A stretch of 64,000 bases of DNA from a phage. The notes under the pieces were generated by a model. It saw only the letters and a program-made list of their open reading frames with translations. It was not told where the DNA came from and did no database searches. The DNA is taken from the sequence record PX418213.1; one strand, 5' to 3'. Position numbers and translations under genes: made by a program. Positions 1-59,324 of the stretch are shown piece after piece; the first letter of the stretch is position 1; each line of letters starts with the position of its first letter.

Positions 1-202
1 GAGTCATATTTAAAGTCTAGATTATTTAGAAAATCTTCAATATCTTTTTCTGTATAACCTACGGGCAATACCCAAACTTCTTTGTCTCCATAATAACCGA
101 ATTCTATCTTAATACACTTAACTTCAGAATTAGTATTCTTTAGGGCAAGTAACAACTCTTCTTTAGCATTAATCATAGCATATTTCTCGTGCTAGTTTAA
201 TT

Positions 203-278
203 TGGTACACCCACTAGGACTTGAACCTAGAACCCTCCGCTTAAGAGGCGGTAGCTCTAACCATTGAGCTATGGATGT
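203..278 (-). tRNA. tRNA-Lys (anticodon CTT)
   Basis: Reverse-complemented T-arm on + strand (ctaggacttgaacctag); 7-bp acceptor stem acatcca/tgggtgt with one G-U; D-stem gctc/gagc; anticodon loop CTCTTAA; CCA encoded. Confidence 0.7.
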
Positions 279-455
279 ATTAAATTACTTTTTCCAGTTC
301 ATCAGCTATGGCTTTGATTTTTTCAAAGTTTACATCACTTATAATGATACCTTCCAGTGACAGAGATATTCTAGCATTTTTCATAGCAGATTCTTTTATC
401 TGCTCTATCTCTTCTGGAGTAAACTCCCTACGTTCCATAGCTAACCTACCTTATT

Positions 456-13101: not shown

Positions 13102-13130
13102 ATTATACGAGAATTTGAAGCGTTTAGCAA
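13102..13130 (-). promoter_or_regulatory. sigma70-like promoter (minus strand)
   Basis: attata/tagcaa with 17-bp spacer; upstream of 12548..13063. Confidence 0.5.
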
Positions 13131-32677: not shown

Positions 32678-32986
32678 ATGAGCGAACAGGTAAATCAAAA
32701 CTATGAAGGACACGTTGATGACCAGTCCATCATACTCTGGGAGAAGGAGGGAGAACAAATAAGATTAACAGTATCTGAATTTCGTGGGAATCTATACATG
32801 GGTATTCGTTACTGGCTTCTTGATATTAATGATGAATGGTTTCCAACGAAATCTGGCTTCTCTTTTCCTTACACCCTAGAAACAACATCACAGCTTTTCT
32901 ATGCGTTTACACAGATTCTTAGCGAATCTGAGGTTTTACATGAAGTACAGAAACGAGCTGAAGAACTCAAAGCCAAGAATGCCTAG
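32678..32986 (+). CDS. hypothetical protein (102 aa)
   Basis: ORF track; terminator overlapping the stop. Confidence 0.45.
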   Translation: MSEQVNQNYEGHVDDQSIILWEKEGEQIRLTVSEFRGNLYMGIRYWLLDINDEWFPTKSGFSFPYTLETTSQLFYAFTQILSESEVLHEVQKRAEELKAKNA

Positions 32987-33012
32987 TTCTTGGCTTTTTC
33001 TTTATAAATGTA

Positions 33013-33042
33013 TTTGCTTTCAACTCAGTTTTGTTATATAAT
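33013..33042 (+). promoter_or_regulatory. sigma70-like promoter (plus strand)
   Basis: TTTGCTttcaactcagttttgttaTATAAT. Confidence 0.45.
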
Positions 33043-33072
33043 ATTTATATAAATTAATGAGAGGGTTGCAAA

Positions 33073-33345
33073 GTGAAAAAGATAAATATAAGTACACTTA
33101 AACCTTTCCCATATATCGGACAGCCTCTTATACTTATGTGGGAGGAGAAGATTAATGGAGAAAAGTATTCTAAAATTAGAAGTGGGTATAAGCTGATTTC
33201 ACTTCATTACGAAAAAGAAATATTAACAGCTGAAATATACTCTCCATTGTCAGATAGGCTAGTAAAAACCACGTATTTGCATCTCTGCAAAAATTTTACA
33301 TGGCACGGATCCACTAGACAGCCCACGTACTATGAGGCAGAATAA
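33073..33345 (+). CDS. hypothetical protein (90 aa, GTG start)
   Basis: ORF track; AT-rich; GAGAGGG SD. Confidence 0.4.
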   Translation: MKKINISTLKPFPYIGQPLILMWEEKINGEKYSKIRSGYKLISLHYEKEILTAEIYSPLSDRLVKTTYLHLCKNFTWHGSTRQPTYYEAE

Positions 33346-34317
33346 ATGACTAATATAAAAGACTTTATTAAACGTTGTCAAGAAGCGTATTACCAGGGAA
33401 TGTCTTTAATCTCTGACGAAGAATATGATCGTCTGATTAAAAGATTTCCGTTAGAAGAAGAGATTGGCCCTAAGGGCGATATTCCACATCTGTATCGTAT
33501 GTATTCTTTACAGAAAGTTTATTATAATCGTGGAGATAAACCCCCATTTAACCCATTAGGTCAGGTAGAAACTGACAAGTTAGATGGTTGTGCGATTTCT
33601 CTATTATATATTAATGGCGAATTTGTTCAAGCGCTAACTCGTGGTAATGGCATTTTAGGGAATGATGTCACAAGCAACGTAAGATTGCTGAATATCCCTG
33701 AAAAGATTTCCCAAAAAGTACCTACTCAAATCACTGGTGAAGTTCTAATTACAAAAGAAGTAGAAAATAAACGTAACTTTGCCTCTGGTGCTATTAACCT
33801 CAAAGATAGCGATGATTTCGTACAACGTATCGGGGAAGGTGGTTTAATCTTCGTTGCATACGGTATCCAGTGTTCTGCTGAATCTGTAGGTATTACAGAA
33901 TCGTATTTAAAAGATATGCTCTGGCTAGAGAATGAAGATTTCTTAACAGTTGTTAATGTGCGTTCCTTCTTTAAATGGATTCCGACGGACGGTAAAGTTG
34001 TTCGTATTAATGACAACAACAAATTCTTCCGAGAAGGCTGGACTAATAAATTCCCTCGTGGGGCATTCGCTATTAAAGAGGATGAAGAAGGCGAGATTAC
34101 AACTCTTACTAAAGTTGAATGGCAGGTAGGGGCTTCTGGTAAAGTAACTCCAGTTGGTTATTTCGAACCGGTAATTATTGATGATGCTACAATTGTTAAA
34201 GCGACTCTTAATAACGTTGATTATATTAACTCTCTTGATCTAGAGATCGGTTGCCAGATTCGAGTGATTCGTGCTGGTGGTGTAATCCCGTGCATAGTAG
34301 AGCGAGTATACGATTAA
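33346..34317 (+). CDS. ligA: NAD-dependent DNA ligase, adenylation-domain subunit (split ligase, part A)
   Basis: KxDG adenylation motif (ETDKLDGCAISL) and TRGNGILGNDVT block; protein stops after the adenylation/OB region. Confidence 0.7.
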   Translation: MTNIKDFIKRCQEAYYQGMSLISDEEYDRLIKRFPLEEEIGPKGDIPHLYRMYSLQKVYYNRGDKPPFNPLGQVETDKLDGCAISLLYINGEFVQALTRGNGILGNDVTSNVRLLNIPEKISQKVPTQITGEVLITKEVENKRNFASGAINLKDSDDFVQRIGEGGLIFVAYGIQCSAESVGITESYLKDMLWLENEDFLTVVNVRSFFKWIPTDGKVVRINDNNKFFREGWTNKFPRGAFAIKEDEEGEITTLTKVEWQVGASGKVTPVGYFEPVIIDDATIVKATLNNVDYINSLDLEIGCQIRVIRAGGVIPCIVERVYD

Positions 34318-34460
34318 TACATAACCCTTTGCTACCCATCTACCATATCGGAATTATAAAGTGGTTATTGACATTTTCGCCGCTTAGGTATATACTATTA
34401 TCATTCAGTTGAGGGATAGAAAGTTATGGCGAGGGTAAGCAAAGTTAGTTAAAATTGTAG

Positions 34461-34489
34461 TTGCTAAATGCTTAAATACTTGCTATAAT
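34461..34489 (+). promoter_or_regulatory. sigma70-like promoter (plus strand) between the two ligase genes
   Basis: TTGCTAaatgcttaaatacttgcTATAAT with 17-bp spacer; a second TTGACA/TATACT pair lies at about 34367-34395. Confidence 0.5.
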
Positions 34490-34519
34490 ATTTATATAAA
34501 TTGATAAGGAAGAAATTTG

Positions 34520-35299
34520 ATGAAAATCGAAATTCCAACACAATGTCCCTCTTGTGGTTCTAAGCTAGATCTTGTCAACGGACAATTATTCTGTCGGAAT
34601 AAGTCCAACTGTCCAGCGCAATCAAGTAAGTTAATTGAGAACTTCTGTTCAAAAATGAAGTTAAAGGGCTTTGGCCCAAAAACTATTGAGAAGCTGGAGC
34701 TGACGAAGATTTCAGAACTATTTTACCTAACCGAAGAAGATTTGGTTAGAGCCGTGGGTAGCAAGGTTGCCGCTAAGTTAATTAGCGAATTAAATACTAA
34801 AGTTCGCGGAGACATTGACTTTGGTTCAGTTCTCGGTTCTTTAGGAATCCCTCTAATTGGAGAGGTTGCAGCAAAGAAATTATCCCAAAATTGCACTAGC
34901 TTCCACGATGTGAAGGCTGACGGCAAGGCTGGAGAAAACTATAAAGCCTGGCTAAATTCCCCACAAGGCAAGGATGTTATCGAACTACCGTGGAAATTCT
35001 CAACTGGTATTAAGGGCACTAAAGCTAATATTATCATTACGGATGAATTAGTTGCCCGGCCAAATGGAATCACGGTATGTATTACCGGATCTTTGCAAGA
35101 TTTTGCAAATAGAACGGATGCAACAAACTATTTAGAAAGTCTAGGATATACGGTTAAGAAATCCGTTACCAAAGACGTTAAATACCTAATCTGTGAGGAT
35201 GAATCAAAACGTTCTTCCTCATCTTATAAGAAAGCCGAAACGAATGGGATAGAAATCCTGTCGATTAAAGAACTATTGGAGAAAAATAATAATGTCTAA
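34520..35299 (+). CDS. ligB: NAD-dependent DNA ligase, Zn-finger/HhH/BRCT subunit (split ligase, part B)
   Basis: Cys4 zinc finger (CPSCGS...CRNKSNCPAQ), HhH-like segments, BRCT-like C-terminus; start at ATG 34520. Confidence 0.65.
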   Translation: MKIEIPTQCPSCGSKLDLVNGQLFCRNKSNCPAQSSKLIENFCSKMKLKGFGPKTIEKLELTKISELFYLTEEDLVRAVGSKVAAKLISELNTKVRGDIDFGSVLGSLGIPLIGEVAAKKLSQNCTSFHDVKADGKAGENYKAWLNSPQGKDVIELPWKFSTGIKGTKANIIITDELVARPNGITVCITGSLQDFANRTDATNYLESLGYTVKKSVTKDVKYLICEDESKRSSSSYKKAETNGIEILSIKELLEKNNNV

Positions 35300-36059
35300 A
35301 CTGAACTGGAACGTAGAAGGTGTAACCGAGTCTCTGAAAGCAAAAGCCACTGCTCTGGGTGTTGCTGTAATCTCTCAAGAACAAGTAGCTGCTATCGCTG
35401 CTGAACTGGCCGCTGAAACTGGCAAAGATGTTACTGCTCGCTCTGTTGGCTCTAAACTGCGTAAAGAAGGTTTTGAAGTACAGAAAGCTAACGAAGTACA
35501 GAAATCCCCGTGGACTCCTGAGCAGGAAGCTGAACTGGTTGATTTCCTGAACGCTCATGCTGGTCAGTATACCTATGCTGAGATCGCTGCTGCTGTAGCT
35601 GGTGGTCAGTTCGGTGCTAAACAGGTACAGGGTAAGATTCTGAGTCTGGAAATGACCGCTTCTGTTAAACCAACCGAAAAAGCTGCTGCTGTTCGTTCCT
35701 TCACTCCGGATGAAGAAACTGATTTTGTTAATCAGGTTGTTGCTGGTGCTACTATTGAAGCTATCGCTGCTCACTTCGGTCGCAATATTAAGCAGATCCG
35801 CGGTAAAGCTCTGAGTCTGCTTCGTGAAGGTCGTATCGCTGCTATGCCAGTACAGGAAACTTCAAGTGCTAAAACTCGTGAAGATCTGTTAGAAGGTCTG
35901 GATCTGGTTAACATGACTGTTGCTGAGATCGCTGAGAAAACTGGTAAGTCTGAGCGCGGTGTTAAATCTATGCTGTCTCGTCGTGGTCTGGTTGCTAAGG
36001 ACTATGATGGTGCCGCTAAGCGTGCTAAACTGGATGCAAAAGCTGCGGCTGCTGAATAA
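35292..36059 (+). CDS. abundant Ala-rich DNA-binding-like protein
   Basis: Strongly E. coli-optimal codon usage; two internally similar halves; position upstream of the replicative helicase. Function inferred. Confidence 0.45.
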   Translation: MSKLNWNVEGVTESLKAKATALGVAVISQEQVAAIAAELAAETGKDVTARSVGSKLRKEGFEVQKANEVQKSPWTPEQEAELVDFLNAHAGQYTYAEIAAAVAGGQFGAKQVQGKILSLEMTASVKPTEKAAAVRSFTPDEETDFVNQVVAGATIEAIAAHFGRNIKQIRGKALSLLREGRIAAMPVQETSSAKTREDLLEGLDLVNMTVAEIAEKTGKSERGVKSMLSRRGLVAKDYDGAAKRAKLDAKAAAAE

Positions 36060-36141
36060 TCTGGTAAATTAAACCTAAGGGGAGGGGGCTATGCTCCTTC
36101 CCCTTTTTGCATTTAGAAGGCACGAAAGCGTGCAAAGGAGA

Positions 36142-37614
36142 ATGACCTTGTTTAACGTGCAAGCTGTAGTGTTGAAGATGCTTCTAGCTTCCGAACAGAA
36201 GCAAATAGCATTGGAAACATTCTCAAAACTGCATAAAGATCATTTTAATGACGCTTTCTCCTCAATTTACCAAGCCGTCCAGAATTATTATAAAAAATAT
36301 AACACAATGCCGTCCATTGACGCACTTATGCTTGAAGCTAATAGGAACGCCCGCCTTTCTCAAGCTCTAGTCGTCTTAGCTAACACTCAAATTCCAGAAG
36401 TGAGCATGGAACAGGCACTTGAAGTCCTAGAAGCCGAATATACACAGGATTTATTCCTGAAGCTTCTAGAAACAGACGTGCTTCAAGATTTAACAATGCT
36501 GGATCAGGGAGAAATTCTCAACCGAGTTGCCTCCCTTCACTTAAAATTAGAAGAGAAAGTAACGAATACTGGAAAAGTATTCAACGCAGATAACATGCGT
36601 ATTTTCCAGAGAGAAGAAGATACCAAACTGAACTTAATCGCTCTTGGTATTTGTAATGAGTTCGACGCTCAAATTGGTTTAGCTCGCACAGAAACGTTAC
36701 TGCTTGGTGGTTGGCGTGGTACTGGTAAATCCATTATCTGTTCAAACATACAGGTTCAGCAATATTTGAATGGGGATATTGCTCCATACTTCTCAATTGA
36801 GATGAAAGAACATGAGGTATTTAGACGTAATCTAGCCATGTTAGCTGGTGTATCAGCATTAGCAATGCGTAATAATACTCTAGAAGGTGCAGCTCTGTTG
36901 AGATTAGCCAGAACTAGAGCTAGAATGTTTAATGGTGGTGAAGAGCTTTTCGATAACTTCGTTAAACAGTACACAATGGCTAAGATGAGTGATTTCTACG
37001 ATATGGAGAGTAAGCTAATAGAAGGATATGAGCTACATACTCCTATGATTATTGTTTATGACCCTGAGCTGTCTATTACAACAGTTGACGTAGAATTAAA
37101 TAAATTAGTTGCTAGATATGGTGATAAAGTTACAGTAGCTTTACTGGACTATATTAACCAAACCCGACTTCCAGACTCTAAAACCATTGATATGTATGAC
37201 TGGAAAGAACAGATGGTTGTCAGCTCGTCTTTCAAATCTATCTGCCAGAAACATAACGTGGCTGGTGTAGCTCCTTACCAGATCGATCAAGATGGTAGAA
37301 CACGTATGTCAAAGGGGATTCTTGATTCCGCAGACATGGCTGCTAATCTTAATGCTGCAAAAGCTGATAATGGTCAAGGTGCTATTATGTTTGACTTCGT
37401 TAAGACTCGTTCTTCTGATAGCGTGAAGTTTATGCCTAAAATGAACTGGGAAACTCTGCGAATGGATAACACTACCAACCTAGCAATGGAAGATATATCT
37501 CAAATGGAAGCTGAGTTCGTTATCCCTATTGAGAAGGATAAGCCGGCTCAACCTAAACGTGCTAAGAAAGACAAAACTGAAAATTCAACAGGTGAACAGG
37601 CCAGCGATATATGA
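36142..37614 (+). CDS. DnaB-family replicative DNA helicase
   Basis: Walker A (LLGGWRGTGKS); start at ATG 36142 after AAGGAG (track start 36091 lacks an SD). Confidence 0.65.
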   Translation: MTLFNVQAVVLKMLLASEQKQIALETFSKLHKDHFNDAFSSIYQAVQNYYKKYNTMPSIDALMLEANRNARLSQALVVLANTQIPEVSMEQALEVLEAEYTQDLFLKLLETDVLQDLTMLDQGEILNRVASLHLKLEEKVTNTGKVFNADNMRIFQREEDTKLNLIALGICNEFDAQIGLARTETLLLGGWRGTGKSIICSNIQVQQYLNGDIAPYFSIEMKEHEVFRRNLAMLAGVSALAMRNNTLEGAALLRLARTRARMFNGGEELFDNFVKQYTMAKMSDFYDMESKLIEGYELHTPMIIVYDPELSITTVDVELNKLVARYGDKVTVALLDYINQTRLPDSKTIDMYDWKEQMVVSSSFKSICQKHNVAGVAPYQIDQDGRTRMSKGILDSADMAANLNAAKADNGQGAIMFDFVKTRSSDSVKFMPKMNWETLRMDNTTNLAMEDISQMEAEFVIPIEKDKPAQPKRAKKDKTENSTGEQASDI

Positions 37615-59215: not shown

Positions 59216-59324
59216 AGTTAATTTCTCCTCTTTAATAACAATATTATAATAGTATTGGAAAATTTTATCAAGAAATTTTTATTTTTCCATAAAGAAAAGG
59301 AGGACATAAAGTCCTCCTCCAATA

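Follow-up and report, generated by a model that had tools for sequence, protein, structure and literature searches.

The window analysed here is a stretch of 64,000 nucleotides of phage DNA (sequence record PX418213.1), and the genes for the two parts of an NAD-dependent DNA ligase, ligA and ligB, lie in it on the same strand with a non-coding spacer between them (Table 1). The open reading frame of ligB starts at 34517/34520, and its length is counted from the ATG at 34520. The ligase genes stand in the order ssDNA-binding regulator, ligA, ligB, D5, DnaB-like helicase and primase, which is the T5-type synteny; the same synteny of the ligase region is also found in marine relatives.

Table 1. 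Features of the ligase locus, with positions in the window
Feature	Position	Strand	Remarks
Intrinsic-terminator-like hairpin	32969..32997	+	12-pair stem, then T run; closes the upstream transcription unit
Early-type promoter, TTGCTT-17-TATAAT	33016..33044	+	followed by ATTTATATAAATT; serves orf90 and ligA; read from the sequence
orf90	33073..33345	+	90-aa ORF, phrog_35018; stop abuts the ligA ATG
ligA	33346..34317	+	323 aa; putative Ia domain, adenylation and OB domains; Pfam, PDB, T5 annotation
Non-coding spacer	34318..34519	+	202 bp; stops in all three frames; no Rfam family
Promoter P-K28b (P1), TTGACA-17-TATACT	34368..34396	+	11/12 consensus; expected start about 34403
Shine-Dalgarno-like TTGAGGGAT in the P-K28b leader	34409..34417	+	only an 8-codon mini-ORF (34426-34452) comes after it
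Promoter P-K28a (P2), TTGCTA-17-(TG)TATAAT	34461..34489	+	10/12 consensus; TG extended -10
ligB ribosome-binding site, AAGGAAG	34506..34512	+	7 nt before the ATG; read from the sequence
ligB	34520..35299	+	NAD-dependent DNA ligase subunit B, 259 aa; Pfam, PDB, T5 annotation
D5 DNA-binding/late-transcription protein gene	35292..36059	+	overlaps the end of ligB by 8 nt
Strong terminator-like hairpin	36077..36105	+	after D5; stem of 13 pairs (8 G-C) and T run

Relationship to phage T5

Tequintavirus (T5-like) genomes align to the window across 33000-35600 with 96-98% nucleotide identity, and by this similarity the source of the window is a Tequintavirus. Phage T5 has the same genes in the same order with a spacer of the same length, and its proteins are 97-98% identical to those encoded here; the sole difference is orf90, which is absent from the T5 reference. 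In the T5 RefSeq record NC_005859, ligA (T5.116), "promoter P-K 28b", "promoter P-K 28a" and ligB (T5.117) are annotated at the homologous sites. The T5 record AY587007 names the ligase genes dnlj1/dnlj2 and places a putative rho-independent terminator at the site homologous to the hairpin upstream of orf90. The promoter that follows this hairpin has the same sequence as a promoter that is placed immediately before ligA in the T5 annotation. The names P-K28a and P-K28b reportedly go back to the functional cloning of T5 promoters by Gentz and Bujard in 1985.

A two-subunit ligase was called unusual in the original prediction, and this holds among ligases in general. However, the arrangement is not new, since the T5 RefSeq record contains it, T5 ligA and ligB were named as ligase subunits A and B in a 2013 paper (PMC3632103), and a two-chain orthologue is present in the PDB. 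With the split ligase and both promoters already known from the T5 records AY543070, AY587007 and AY692264, and the two-chain orthologue solved, the locus matters little as a discovery.

The two ligase subunits

The product of ligA matches the Pfam families DNA_ligase_aden (PF01653, E 2.6e-23) and, over residues 252-321, DNA_ligase_OB (PF03120, E 3.6e-22), and its motif I KxDG reads K78-L-D-G. The residues Y15, Y27, D28, K78, D80, G81, R99, E132, D215, G216 and K244 are invariant in LigA across 11 relatives. The N-terminal Ia domain of LigA-family ligases confers NAD+ specificity; its signature (YY...ISDxEYDxL type) is present as AYYQGMSLISDEEYDRL and aligns to residues 13-52 of Thermus LigA, although that segment alone is not significant. 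The motif IV lysine of Thermus LigA (1v9p) is replaced by arginine in the alignment. The subunit matches PDB 9hu3_A (E 1e-103) and also structures of LigA. The product of ligB carries a Cys4 zinc finger (C9/C12/C25/C31), all four cysteines of which are invariant in the alignment of relatives, and a BRCT domain (PF00533, 35.8 bits); its HHH_2 match is weak (24.4 bits, below the cut-off of 27). It matches PDB 9hu3_B (E 2e-80) and aligns to residues 402-529 and 585-666 of E. coli LigA. In alignments of relatives the C-terminus of LigA is conserved, and the N-terminus of LigB fits the T5-type pattern MKI.IPT.CP.CG.

The adenylation half with KxDG and the separate zinc-finger/HhH/BRCT half that had been predicted are thus confirmed, and the relatedness of both ORFs to LigA holds. 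Alignment to LigA, proposed as a check, places the halves next to each other: on the E. coli enzyme (2owo), residues 214-320 of subunit A correspond to LigA 284-390 and residue 3 of subunit B to LigA 402, and the two products meet within about six residues. Bacterial LigA (E. coli, PDB 2OWO) has the same domain series Ia-NTase-OB-Zn-HhH-BRCT (Ia being putative in the phage protein), with KxDG and the Cys4 zinc finger conserved. However, it is one polypeptide of 671 aa, whereas the phage ligase consists of two and is shorter overall. Single-polypeptide structure is a mark of the LigA family; here two ORFs stand apart with stops in every frame between them, and the locus is, to judge by sequence, a split variant of that family and not a canonical LigA.

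The break point falls in the stretch that, in an ordinary LigA, links the OB domain to the Zn finger. LigB, with its Zn finger, HhH and BRCT modules, would represent the DNA-clamping half, and the two proteins would have to join non-covalently to encircle a nick. Providencia phage vB_PreS_PR1, which belongs to another genus of the Demerecviridae, has an orthologous two-chain ligase (PDB 9HU3 / 9I5I), in which chain A is labelled 'DNA ligase (NAD(+))' and chain B 'DNA ligase subunit B'. These chains are 100% identical to PR1 gp116 and gp117; their identity to the subunits of the window is about 54%. By analogy, the subunits of the present phage would form a heterodimer with ligase activity; activity and stoichiometry are taken solely from the existence of the two-chain entries, because the paper behind them was not found in a literature search, which also returned none on the biochemistry of the T5 ligase or on P-K28a/b.

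The spacer and its promoters

The two promoter-like sequences originally predicted for a spacer of about 200 bp (TTGCTA-17-TATAAT and a TTGACA/TATACT pair) are both present; they are of the sigma-70 type and correspond to T5 P-K28a and P-K28b. Segments of 75 nt around P-K28b and P-K28a are identical to NC_005859 66366-66440 and 66459-66533, respectively, at the same position upstream of ligB, and the spacer is identical to the T5 promoter cassette over the aligned 231 bp. Exact TTGACA-N17-TATACT has a single occurrence in the 64 kb, where 0.01 would be expected at random; TTGCTA-N17-TATAAT has six, with 0.07 expected, and among these are copies of promoters known from T5, for example P-H207. 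However, promoter-like matches in 32900-36200 were no more frequent than in shuffled sequences (8 against 7.2), so that a role as promoters is argued from their conservation and the annotation of T5 and not from the match to the consensus alone. When the spacers of 12 phages from many genera were aligned, the invariant columns were essentially the promoter hexamers. P-K28b and P-K28a are kept, at near-constant spacing, in all 27 distinct cassettes (from 59 loci), and the distance from the end of the P-K28a -10 element to the ligB ATG is 23-31 nt in every one of them. PR1 shares with the window both the split point and the tandem promoters upstream of ligB. The spacer, as read from these comparisons, is the T5 tandem promoter pair and not debris. 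The suggestion that it is the scar of an excised element finds no support in the window, where the spacer proved to be a promoter cassette under conservation; it also shows no similarity to the endonuclease gene described below. The reading of the locus as a T5-like two-gene NAD-dependent DNA ligase, ligA/ligB, with P-K28b and P-K28a as tandem promoters in the spacer, is given a probability of about 0.93.

P-K28b resembles the T5 late promoter P-J5 (GTTATTGACA-N17-TATACT) when compared with the T5 record, and the P-J5 sequence itself has no match within the 64-kb window. P-K28a is preceded by A-rich sequence and followed by a ATAAATTGA box, which are features of the T5 early class. Both spacer promoters are probably used in vivo, P-K28a as an early-like promoter and P-K28b, because of its likeness to P-J5, presumably in the temporal class of the latter. 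A TTGRGG-like element in the P-K28b leader recurs in most aligned lineages, with CGG variants in the phages of Erwinia and Proteus, and is followed by no conserved ORF in the aligned lineages. The P-K28b leader of the window folds unusually well (-27.9 kcal/mol, z -3.9), but RNA structure was rejected as a family-wide feature, as the relatives gave z values of -0.6 to -2.1 and RNAalifold yielded no consensus. An inverted repeat over the P-K28a -35 element was likewise rejected as a feature of the family: no more than 2-4 lineages have it in strong form, and in the window it does not exceed chance.

No terminator was detected in the window directly after ligA, and ligB would therefore be reached by read-through from the promoter upstream of orf90; the PR1 record, in contrast, has a terminator annotated right after ligA. 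Starts at P-K28b and P-K28a would add to this read-through transcription. The unit transcribed from the internal promoters would span ligB and the translationally coupled D5, probably ending at the hairpin after D5, which is the likely end of the ligB-D5 unit.

Origin and possible role of the split

Among related loci with enough sequence to hold both halves, 92 of 92 are split, with the same LigA C-terminus, and of the 452 phage records with a match to this stretch, 429 show the two-gene structure. In a spread sample of 60 out of 1073 phage records, all matches of at least 47% identity were in two pieces, and single-piece ligases, which come from jumbo phages, appeared only at 30% identity or less. 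No intact single-gene close relative was found among the sampled records or the 92 loci. Vibrio phages have one to three other genes between ligA and ligB. In marine T5-like contigs whose gap measures only 38-108 bp, promoter-like sequence precedes ligB in 9/9 gaps examined. The presence of a putative promoter ahead of ligB in all lineages examined is a new result of the present comparison.

It is rather unlikely that a free-standing homing endonuclease split a once-intact ligase by insertion and that the spacer is the remnant left after loss of the endonuclease. In favour of such an origin, Salmonella phages SP3 and vB_Sen_SG_WM_RUS_R2 have a 218-aa GIY-YIG ORF (PF01541, 26 bits, above the cut-off of 22.6) between the ligA stop and P-K28b. 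Beside this ORF the last ~190 nt of ligA drop from 88-98% to 58-77% identity to the window, with the protein still conserved, and in the spacer beyond the ORF identity is back at 96%; the divergent ligA end looks like a co-conversion tract. Marine T5-like contigs likewise have an ORF with a T5orf172 domain (GIY-YIG superfamily) directly upstream of ligB, and T5 itself is rich in HNH endonuclease genes. Of the two outcomes proposed for a check of relatives, the intervening endonuclease gene was found in these two Salmonella phages, but the intact single gene was not. However, among 50,697 phage records just three, representing the same two phages, contain the GIY-YIG gene, which is therefore a recent invader of a locus already split. 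The spacer of the window has no similarity to this gene and holds no ORF of at least 40 aa; a single ORF (34251-34412, + strand, 53 aa) extends into it, beginning inside ligA out of frame. Pfam and PHROGs revealed no endonuclease among the intervening ORFs of Proteus, Erwinia, Vibrio and 8sent65 phages, and these ORFs, with the exception of a DprA-like gene, have no relationship to one another. The split point is identical in all relatives, with no fused relative among the sampled records and loci to represent the state before, so that no more than a single ancient event can be deduced.

The nrdA gene of Aeromonas phage Aeh1 is said to be split by mobE into 'genes in pieces' (reportedly Friedrich et al., 2007). 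The ligase resembles this case in that an essential enzyme of DNA metabolism is encoded by two adjacent genes whose products would reassemble, and in that endonuclease genes are found at the junction in some relatives. Unlike in Aeh1, the junction of the window has no endonuclease gene, and the split, which is ancient, extends through the whole family and lacks an intact sister copy; an origin by endonuclease is therefore conjectural.

Very doubtful is a diverged role, in which LigB, expressed with D5 from its own strong promoters, would serve mainly as a separate DNA-binding protein or replisome adaptor through HhH and BRCT, leaving LigA to act largely alone. The two dedicated promoters, the translational coupling of ligB to D5 and not to ligA, and the intervening genes of the Vibrio phages are consistent with it. 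However, the Zn-finger and HhH modules of bacterial LigA (E. coli) are required for nick sealing, the PR1 orthologues share one PDB deposition as its two chains, and ligA and ligB co-occur in all 92 checkable loci. Restoration of one ligase polypeptide by splicing, the spacer being an intron or the halves carrying split inteins, has a negligible probability: group I introns and inteins do at times interrupt phage genes, but no Rfam family, group I/II introns included, matched 34200-34650 at E <= 1, RNAalifold gave no conserved structure, the two products together account for LigA with no extra intein-sized sequence, and the PDB entries contain two separate chains. That one real gene is broken by an error of sequencing or assembly, or by a mutation that recently made it a pseudogene, has only its general possibility in its favour and is already refuted by the recurrence of the structure in the matching records and, with the break at the same residue, in the usable loci, by a gap with stops in every frame, by the ligB ribosome-binding site and ATG, and by the invariant catalytic and Zn-binding residues kept in both halves.

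Tentatively, the ligA-ligB break may be an ancient and universally kept boundary between transcription units of T5-like phages, the two pieces being kept for the junction promoter or promoters that would co-express LigB and D5. In some marine relatives the stop codon of ligA appears to contribute to the -35 element. Within the branch of enterobacterial, Vibrio and Aeromonas phages, P-J5-like P-K28b and early-type P-K28a could possibly form a fixed tandem module, about 94 bp apart, and the junction might, with similar reserve, be a recurrent landing site for genes of GIY-YIG-type endonucleases. If the boundary reading is true, expression from the tandem module could be two-phase or D5-autoregulated. 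The comparative results indicate a split point fixed across T5-like phages, including uncultured marine ones, a ligB-D5 promoter that is always there, and a junction that attracts mobile endonuclease genes. They provide modest context for how essential enzymes tolerate fission and how the boundaries of phage operons evolve.

The two ligase genes

The ligase is encoded by two separate ORFs, with stop codons in all three frames of the 202-bp stretch between them. In Pfam, the product of ligA matched the adenylation domain of NAD-dependent ligases (E 2.6e-23) and their OB fold (E 3.6e-22), and that of ligB matched BRCT (35.8 bits), with weak HhH matches. On solved structures, the alignment of the ligA product to bacterial LigA extends to about residue 390 of E. 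coli LigA, and the ligB product begins at about 400-402 and spans the zinc finger, HhH and BRCT regions. The products thus abut within about six residues, and the break lies in the linker joining the OB fold to the zinc finger. The original prediction of a LigA divided into a KxDG half and a zinc-finger/HhH/BRCT half is borne out by the ORF list, Pfam and the structures, including the abutment on the bacterial enzyme.

Across 33000-35600 the window shares 96-98% identity with many T5-like phages, which places it in Tequintavirus. Records of T5-like phages label the ORF pair as NAD-dependent DNA ligase subunits A and B. The T5 RefSeq record (NC_005859) has the order ligA (T5.116), "promoter P-K 28b", "promoter P-K 28a", ligB (T5.117) and D5; in a second T5 record the genes are dnlj1 and dnlj2 and the promoters are the putative early promoters T5P36 and T5P37, and an Epseptimavirus record tags the same promoters as P-K 28b-like and P-K 28a-like. 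Both promoter stretches are identical in the window and T5. The top PDB matches were both chains of 9HU3 and 9I5I (E 1e-103 for subunit A, 2e-80 for subunit B), whose sequences match gp116 and gp117 of Providencia phage vB_PreS_PR1 (also Demerecviridae) at 100% identity. From these chains and the T5 records, the two-piece ligase already has an annotation, a name in the literature and a solved structure in a two-chain entry; it is the textbook ligA/ligB locus of T5, P-K28b and P-K28a included. The T5 reference lacks the phrog_35018 ORF found upstream of ligA in the window, and there the same promoter directly abuts ligA. This ORF is also present in T5_ev212 and phA11, and Klebsiella phage VAC51 carries a version at 38% identity.

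Features of the ligase locus and related loci (L-numbered loci in their own coordinates)
Feature	Coordinates	Strand	Details
Early promoter upstream of ligA	33016-33044		with RBS, 33016-33060
phrog_35018 ORF	33073-33345	+	90 aa; between early promoter/RBS and ligA
ligA (ORF 1)	33346-34317	+	323 aa; ORF list and sequence
Promoter-like TTGACA-18-TATATT	33352-33381	-	11/12; antisense, inside ligA 5' end, upstream-pointing; may be chance
P-K28b (P1)	34368-34396	+	TTGACA-17-TATACT; pattern scan
P-K28b RNA, predicted	34403-34530	+
Shine-Dalgarno-like element	34409-34417	+	TTGAGGGAT
Mini-ORF	within 34409-34452	+	8 codons (MARVSKVS)
P-K28a (P2)	34461-34489	+	TTGCTA-17-TATAAT, TG-extended; pattern scan
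ligB (ORF 2)	34520-35299	+	259 aa from ATG; TTG one codon upstream
ligB/D5 overlap	35292-35299		8 nt, ATGTCTAA
Strong hairpin	36077-36105
P-H207 copy	13102-13130	-	classic T5 promoter
P-G25 copy	59243-59271	-	classic T5 promoter
GIY-YIG ORF, phage SP3	L043 1684-2340		218 aa; corresponds to window ~34300-34325
T5orf172-domain ORF, marine relatives	L084 2062-2430; L094 2062-2442		similar in further loci; ~122-128 aa
DprA-like gene, Vibrio phages	L005 3885-4448; L008 4127-4687; L053 1711-2403		phrog_768; between ligA and ligB
DprA-like gene, Proteus phage 2 and Erwinia phage KEY	L004 ~2094-2399; L011 ~29-298		phrog_768; immediately upstream of ligA

Age of the split and inserts at the junction

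In tblastn, the subunits joined into one query matched 1073 phage records, of which 60, spread across the set, were listed as a sample. Among these 60, all matches of at least 47% identity are two-piece and belong to T5-like phages of Escherichia, Salmonella, Klebsiella, Erwinia, Providencia and Vibrio; the fused single-piece ligases, from jumbo phages and others, are all at 30% identity or less. Split copies were also observed outside the sample in Proteus and Aeromonas phages. Scanning IMG/VR with a LigB alignment gave 80 additional loci, with identity as low as 37%, bringing those in hand to 97, with both halves present in 92. In all 92, ligA closes with a stop and the ligB frame is stop-closed no more than 29 codons upstream of the match, with gaps between 38 and 1560 bp long. 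Conservation across the relatives covers the C-terminal end of LigA, its catalytic residues and the four cysteines of the LigB zinc finger, and environmental contigs retain the T5 order (ssDNA-binding regulator, ligA, ligB, D5, DnaB). The uniform split, conserved residues and gene order exclude a sequencing error, a pseudogene or a recent event as its cause, and the split is genuine. Judged from these comparisons, the fission looks to have happened once, long ago, in the ancestor of the T5-like group.

The site immediately past the ligA stop is variable in the sequences compared. Phages 8sent65, Erwinia phage KEY and Proteus phage 2 have small, mutually unrelated ORFs there, and Vibrio phages have two or three ORFs. 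The DprA-like gene keeps beside the ligase genes yet switches side. Of the arrangements sought in relatives, an intact single gene was found only as the distant fused ligases of the 60-record sample, and an intervening endonuclease was present in Salmonella phages SP3 and vB_Sen_SG_WM_RUS_R2, as a 218-aa GIY-YIG ORF between the ligA stop and P-K28b. The last ~190 nt of the adjoining ligA show 58-77% nucleotide identity to the window, versus 88-98% elsewhere, with the protein conserved, and identity is back at 96% in the spacer beyond the insert. Such a drop is what a co-conversion tract flanking a homing site should look like, and it suggests that this site is in the ligA 3' end. In marine relatives a T5orf172-domain ORF (GIY-YIG superfamily; phrog_681 'endonuclease') lies directly upstream of ligB, with a cluster of small ORFs before it and, at some loci, a DUF6552 membrane protein as well. 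These inserts show that the ligA/ligB junction attracts mobile endonucleases. That such an element caused the split is nevertheless unlikely, since GIY-YIG-type ORFs occupy the junction as invaders of a locus already split and do not show causation, and the GIY-YIG gene occurs in only 3 of 50,697 phage records.

The spacer had also been proposed as the scar of an excised element. It contains no gene remnant and no ORF of at least 40 aa, the sole ORF extending into it being out of frame and starting within ligA; nothing in Rfam matches it, and it does not resemble the relatives' inserts. The reading as a split ligase with promoters therefore stands, and the scar does not. An independent role for LigB is disfavoured by its strict co-occurrence with ligA in the 92 two-half loci, by the two-chain entries 9HU3 and 9I5I, and by the dependence of the bacterial enzyme on its Zn and HhH modules. 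On sequence evidence, intron or intein splicing to restore a single ligase is excluded, there being no Rfam match and no consensus RNA structure; the structure alignments of both products also speak against it.

Spacer promoters and transcription of ligB

Both -35/-10 pairs claimed for the spacer are present and agree in every detail; the pattern scan found no terminator after ligA. The exact P-K28b pattern occurs once in 64 kb (0.01 expected) and that of P-K28a six times in the window (0.07 expected). In a spacer alignment of 12 phages from many genera, nearly all invariant columns fall in both -35/-10 elements, the extended -10 TG and the A-run upstream of P-K28a; a few downstream positions are also invariant and the remainder has diverged. 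The promoters occur together in 27 of 27 distinct cassettes, 86-98 bp (mostly 93-97 bp) apart, with the P-K28a -10 ending 23-31 nt upstream of the ligB ATG, and this geometry is unaffected by the content between ligA and the cassette. By the criteria used for the tandem pair, it was not detected in the 39 environmental relatives. Nine gaps were inspected, among them eight short ones (38-108 bp) of these relatives; promoter-like sequence directly precedes ligB in all nine, with a weak -35 in one (L069). Three marine T5-like contigs (L071, L081, L097) have a gap of merely 57-59 bp and a single promoter before ligB, the ligA TGA stop contributing to the -35 hexamer (TTGACT/TTGACA). Taken together, the 27 cassettes and nine gaps indicate that a ligB-proximal promoter accompanies the split in every lineage examined.

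The Shine-Dalgarno-like element lies 13-21 nt past the P-K28b -10, and most of the aligned lineages have one like it. In the window only the mini-ORF comes after it, and in the aligned relatives no conserved ORF does. The predicted P-K28b RNA folds at -27.9 kcal/mol (z -3.9 versus shuffles), its leader pairing with the P-K28a region; this strong fold is not conserved in relatives, and a consensus structure is absent. The RBS following the P-G25 copy (ATTAAAGAGGAGAAATTAAC) is that of the pQE/pDS expression vectors.

P-K28a has the traits that T5 early promoters show in T5 and elsewhere in the window: A-rich sequence upstream, TTGCT, TG-TATAAT-AT and an ATAAATT box. T5 early promoters are reported to have a discriminator-region motif in common (Klimuk et al., PMC7472727). 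P-K28b, unlike P-K28a, resembles P-J5 (GTTATTGACA-N17-TATACT), which was shown to be late (Klimuk et al., PMC7472727). The D5 start codon lies within the closing 8 nt of ligB, implying that translation of the two genes is coupled. As read from this arrangement, ligB and the coupled D5 would be fed by read-through from the early promoter upstream of ligA, the two internal promoters, of different flavour, would also initiate their transcription, and the ligB-D5 unit would terminate at the strong hairpin.
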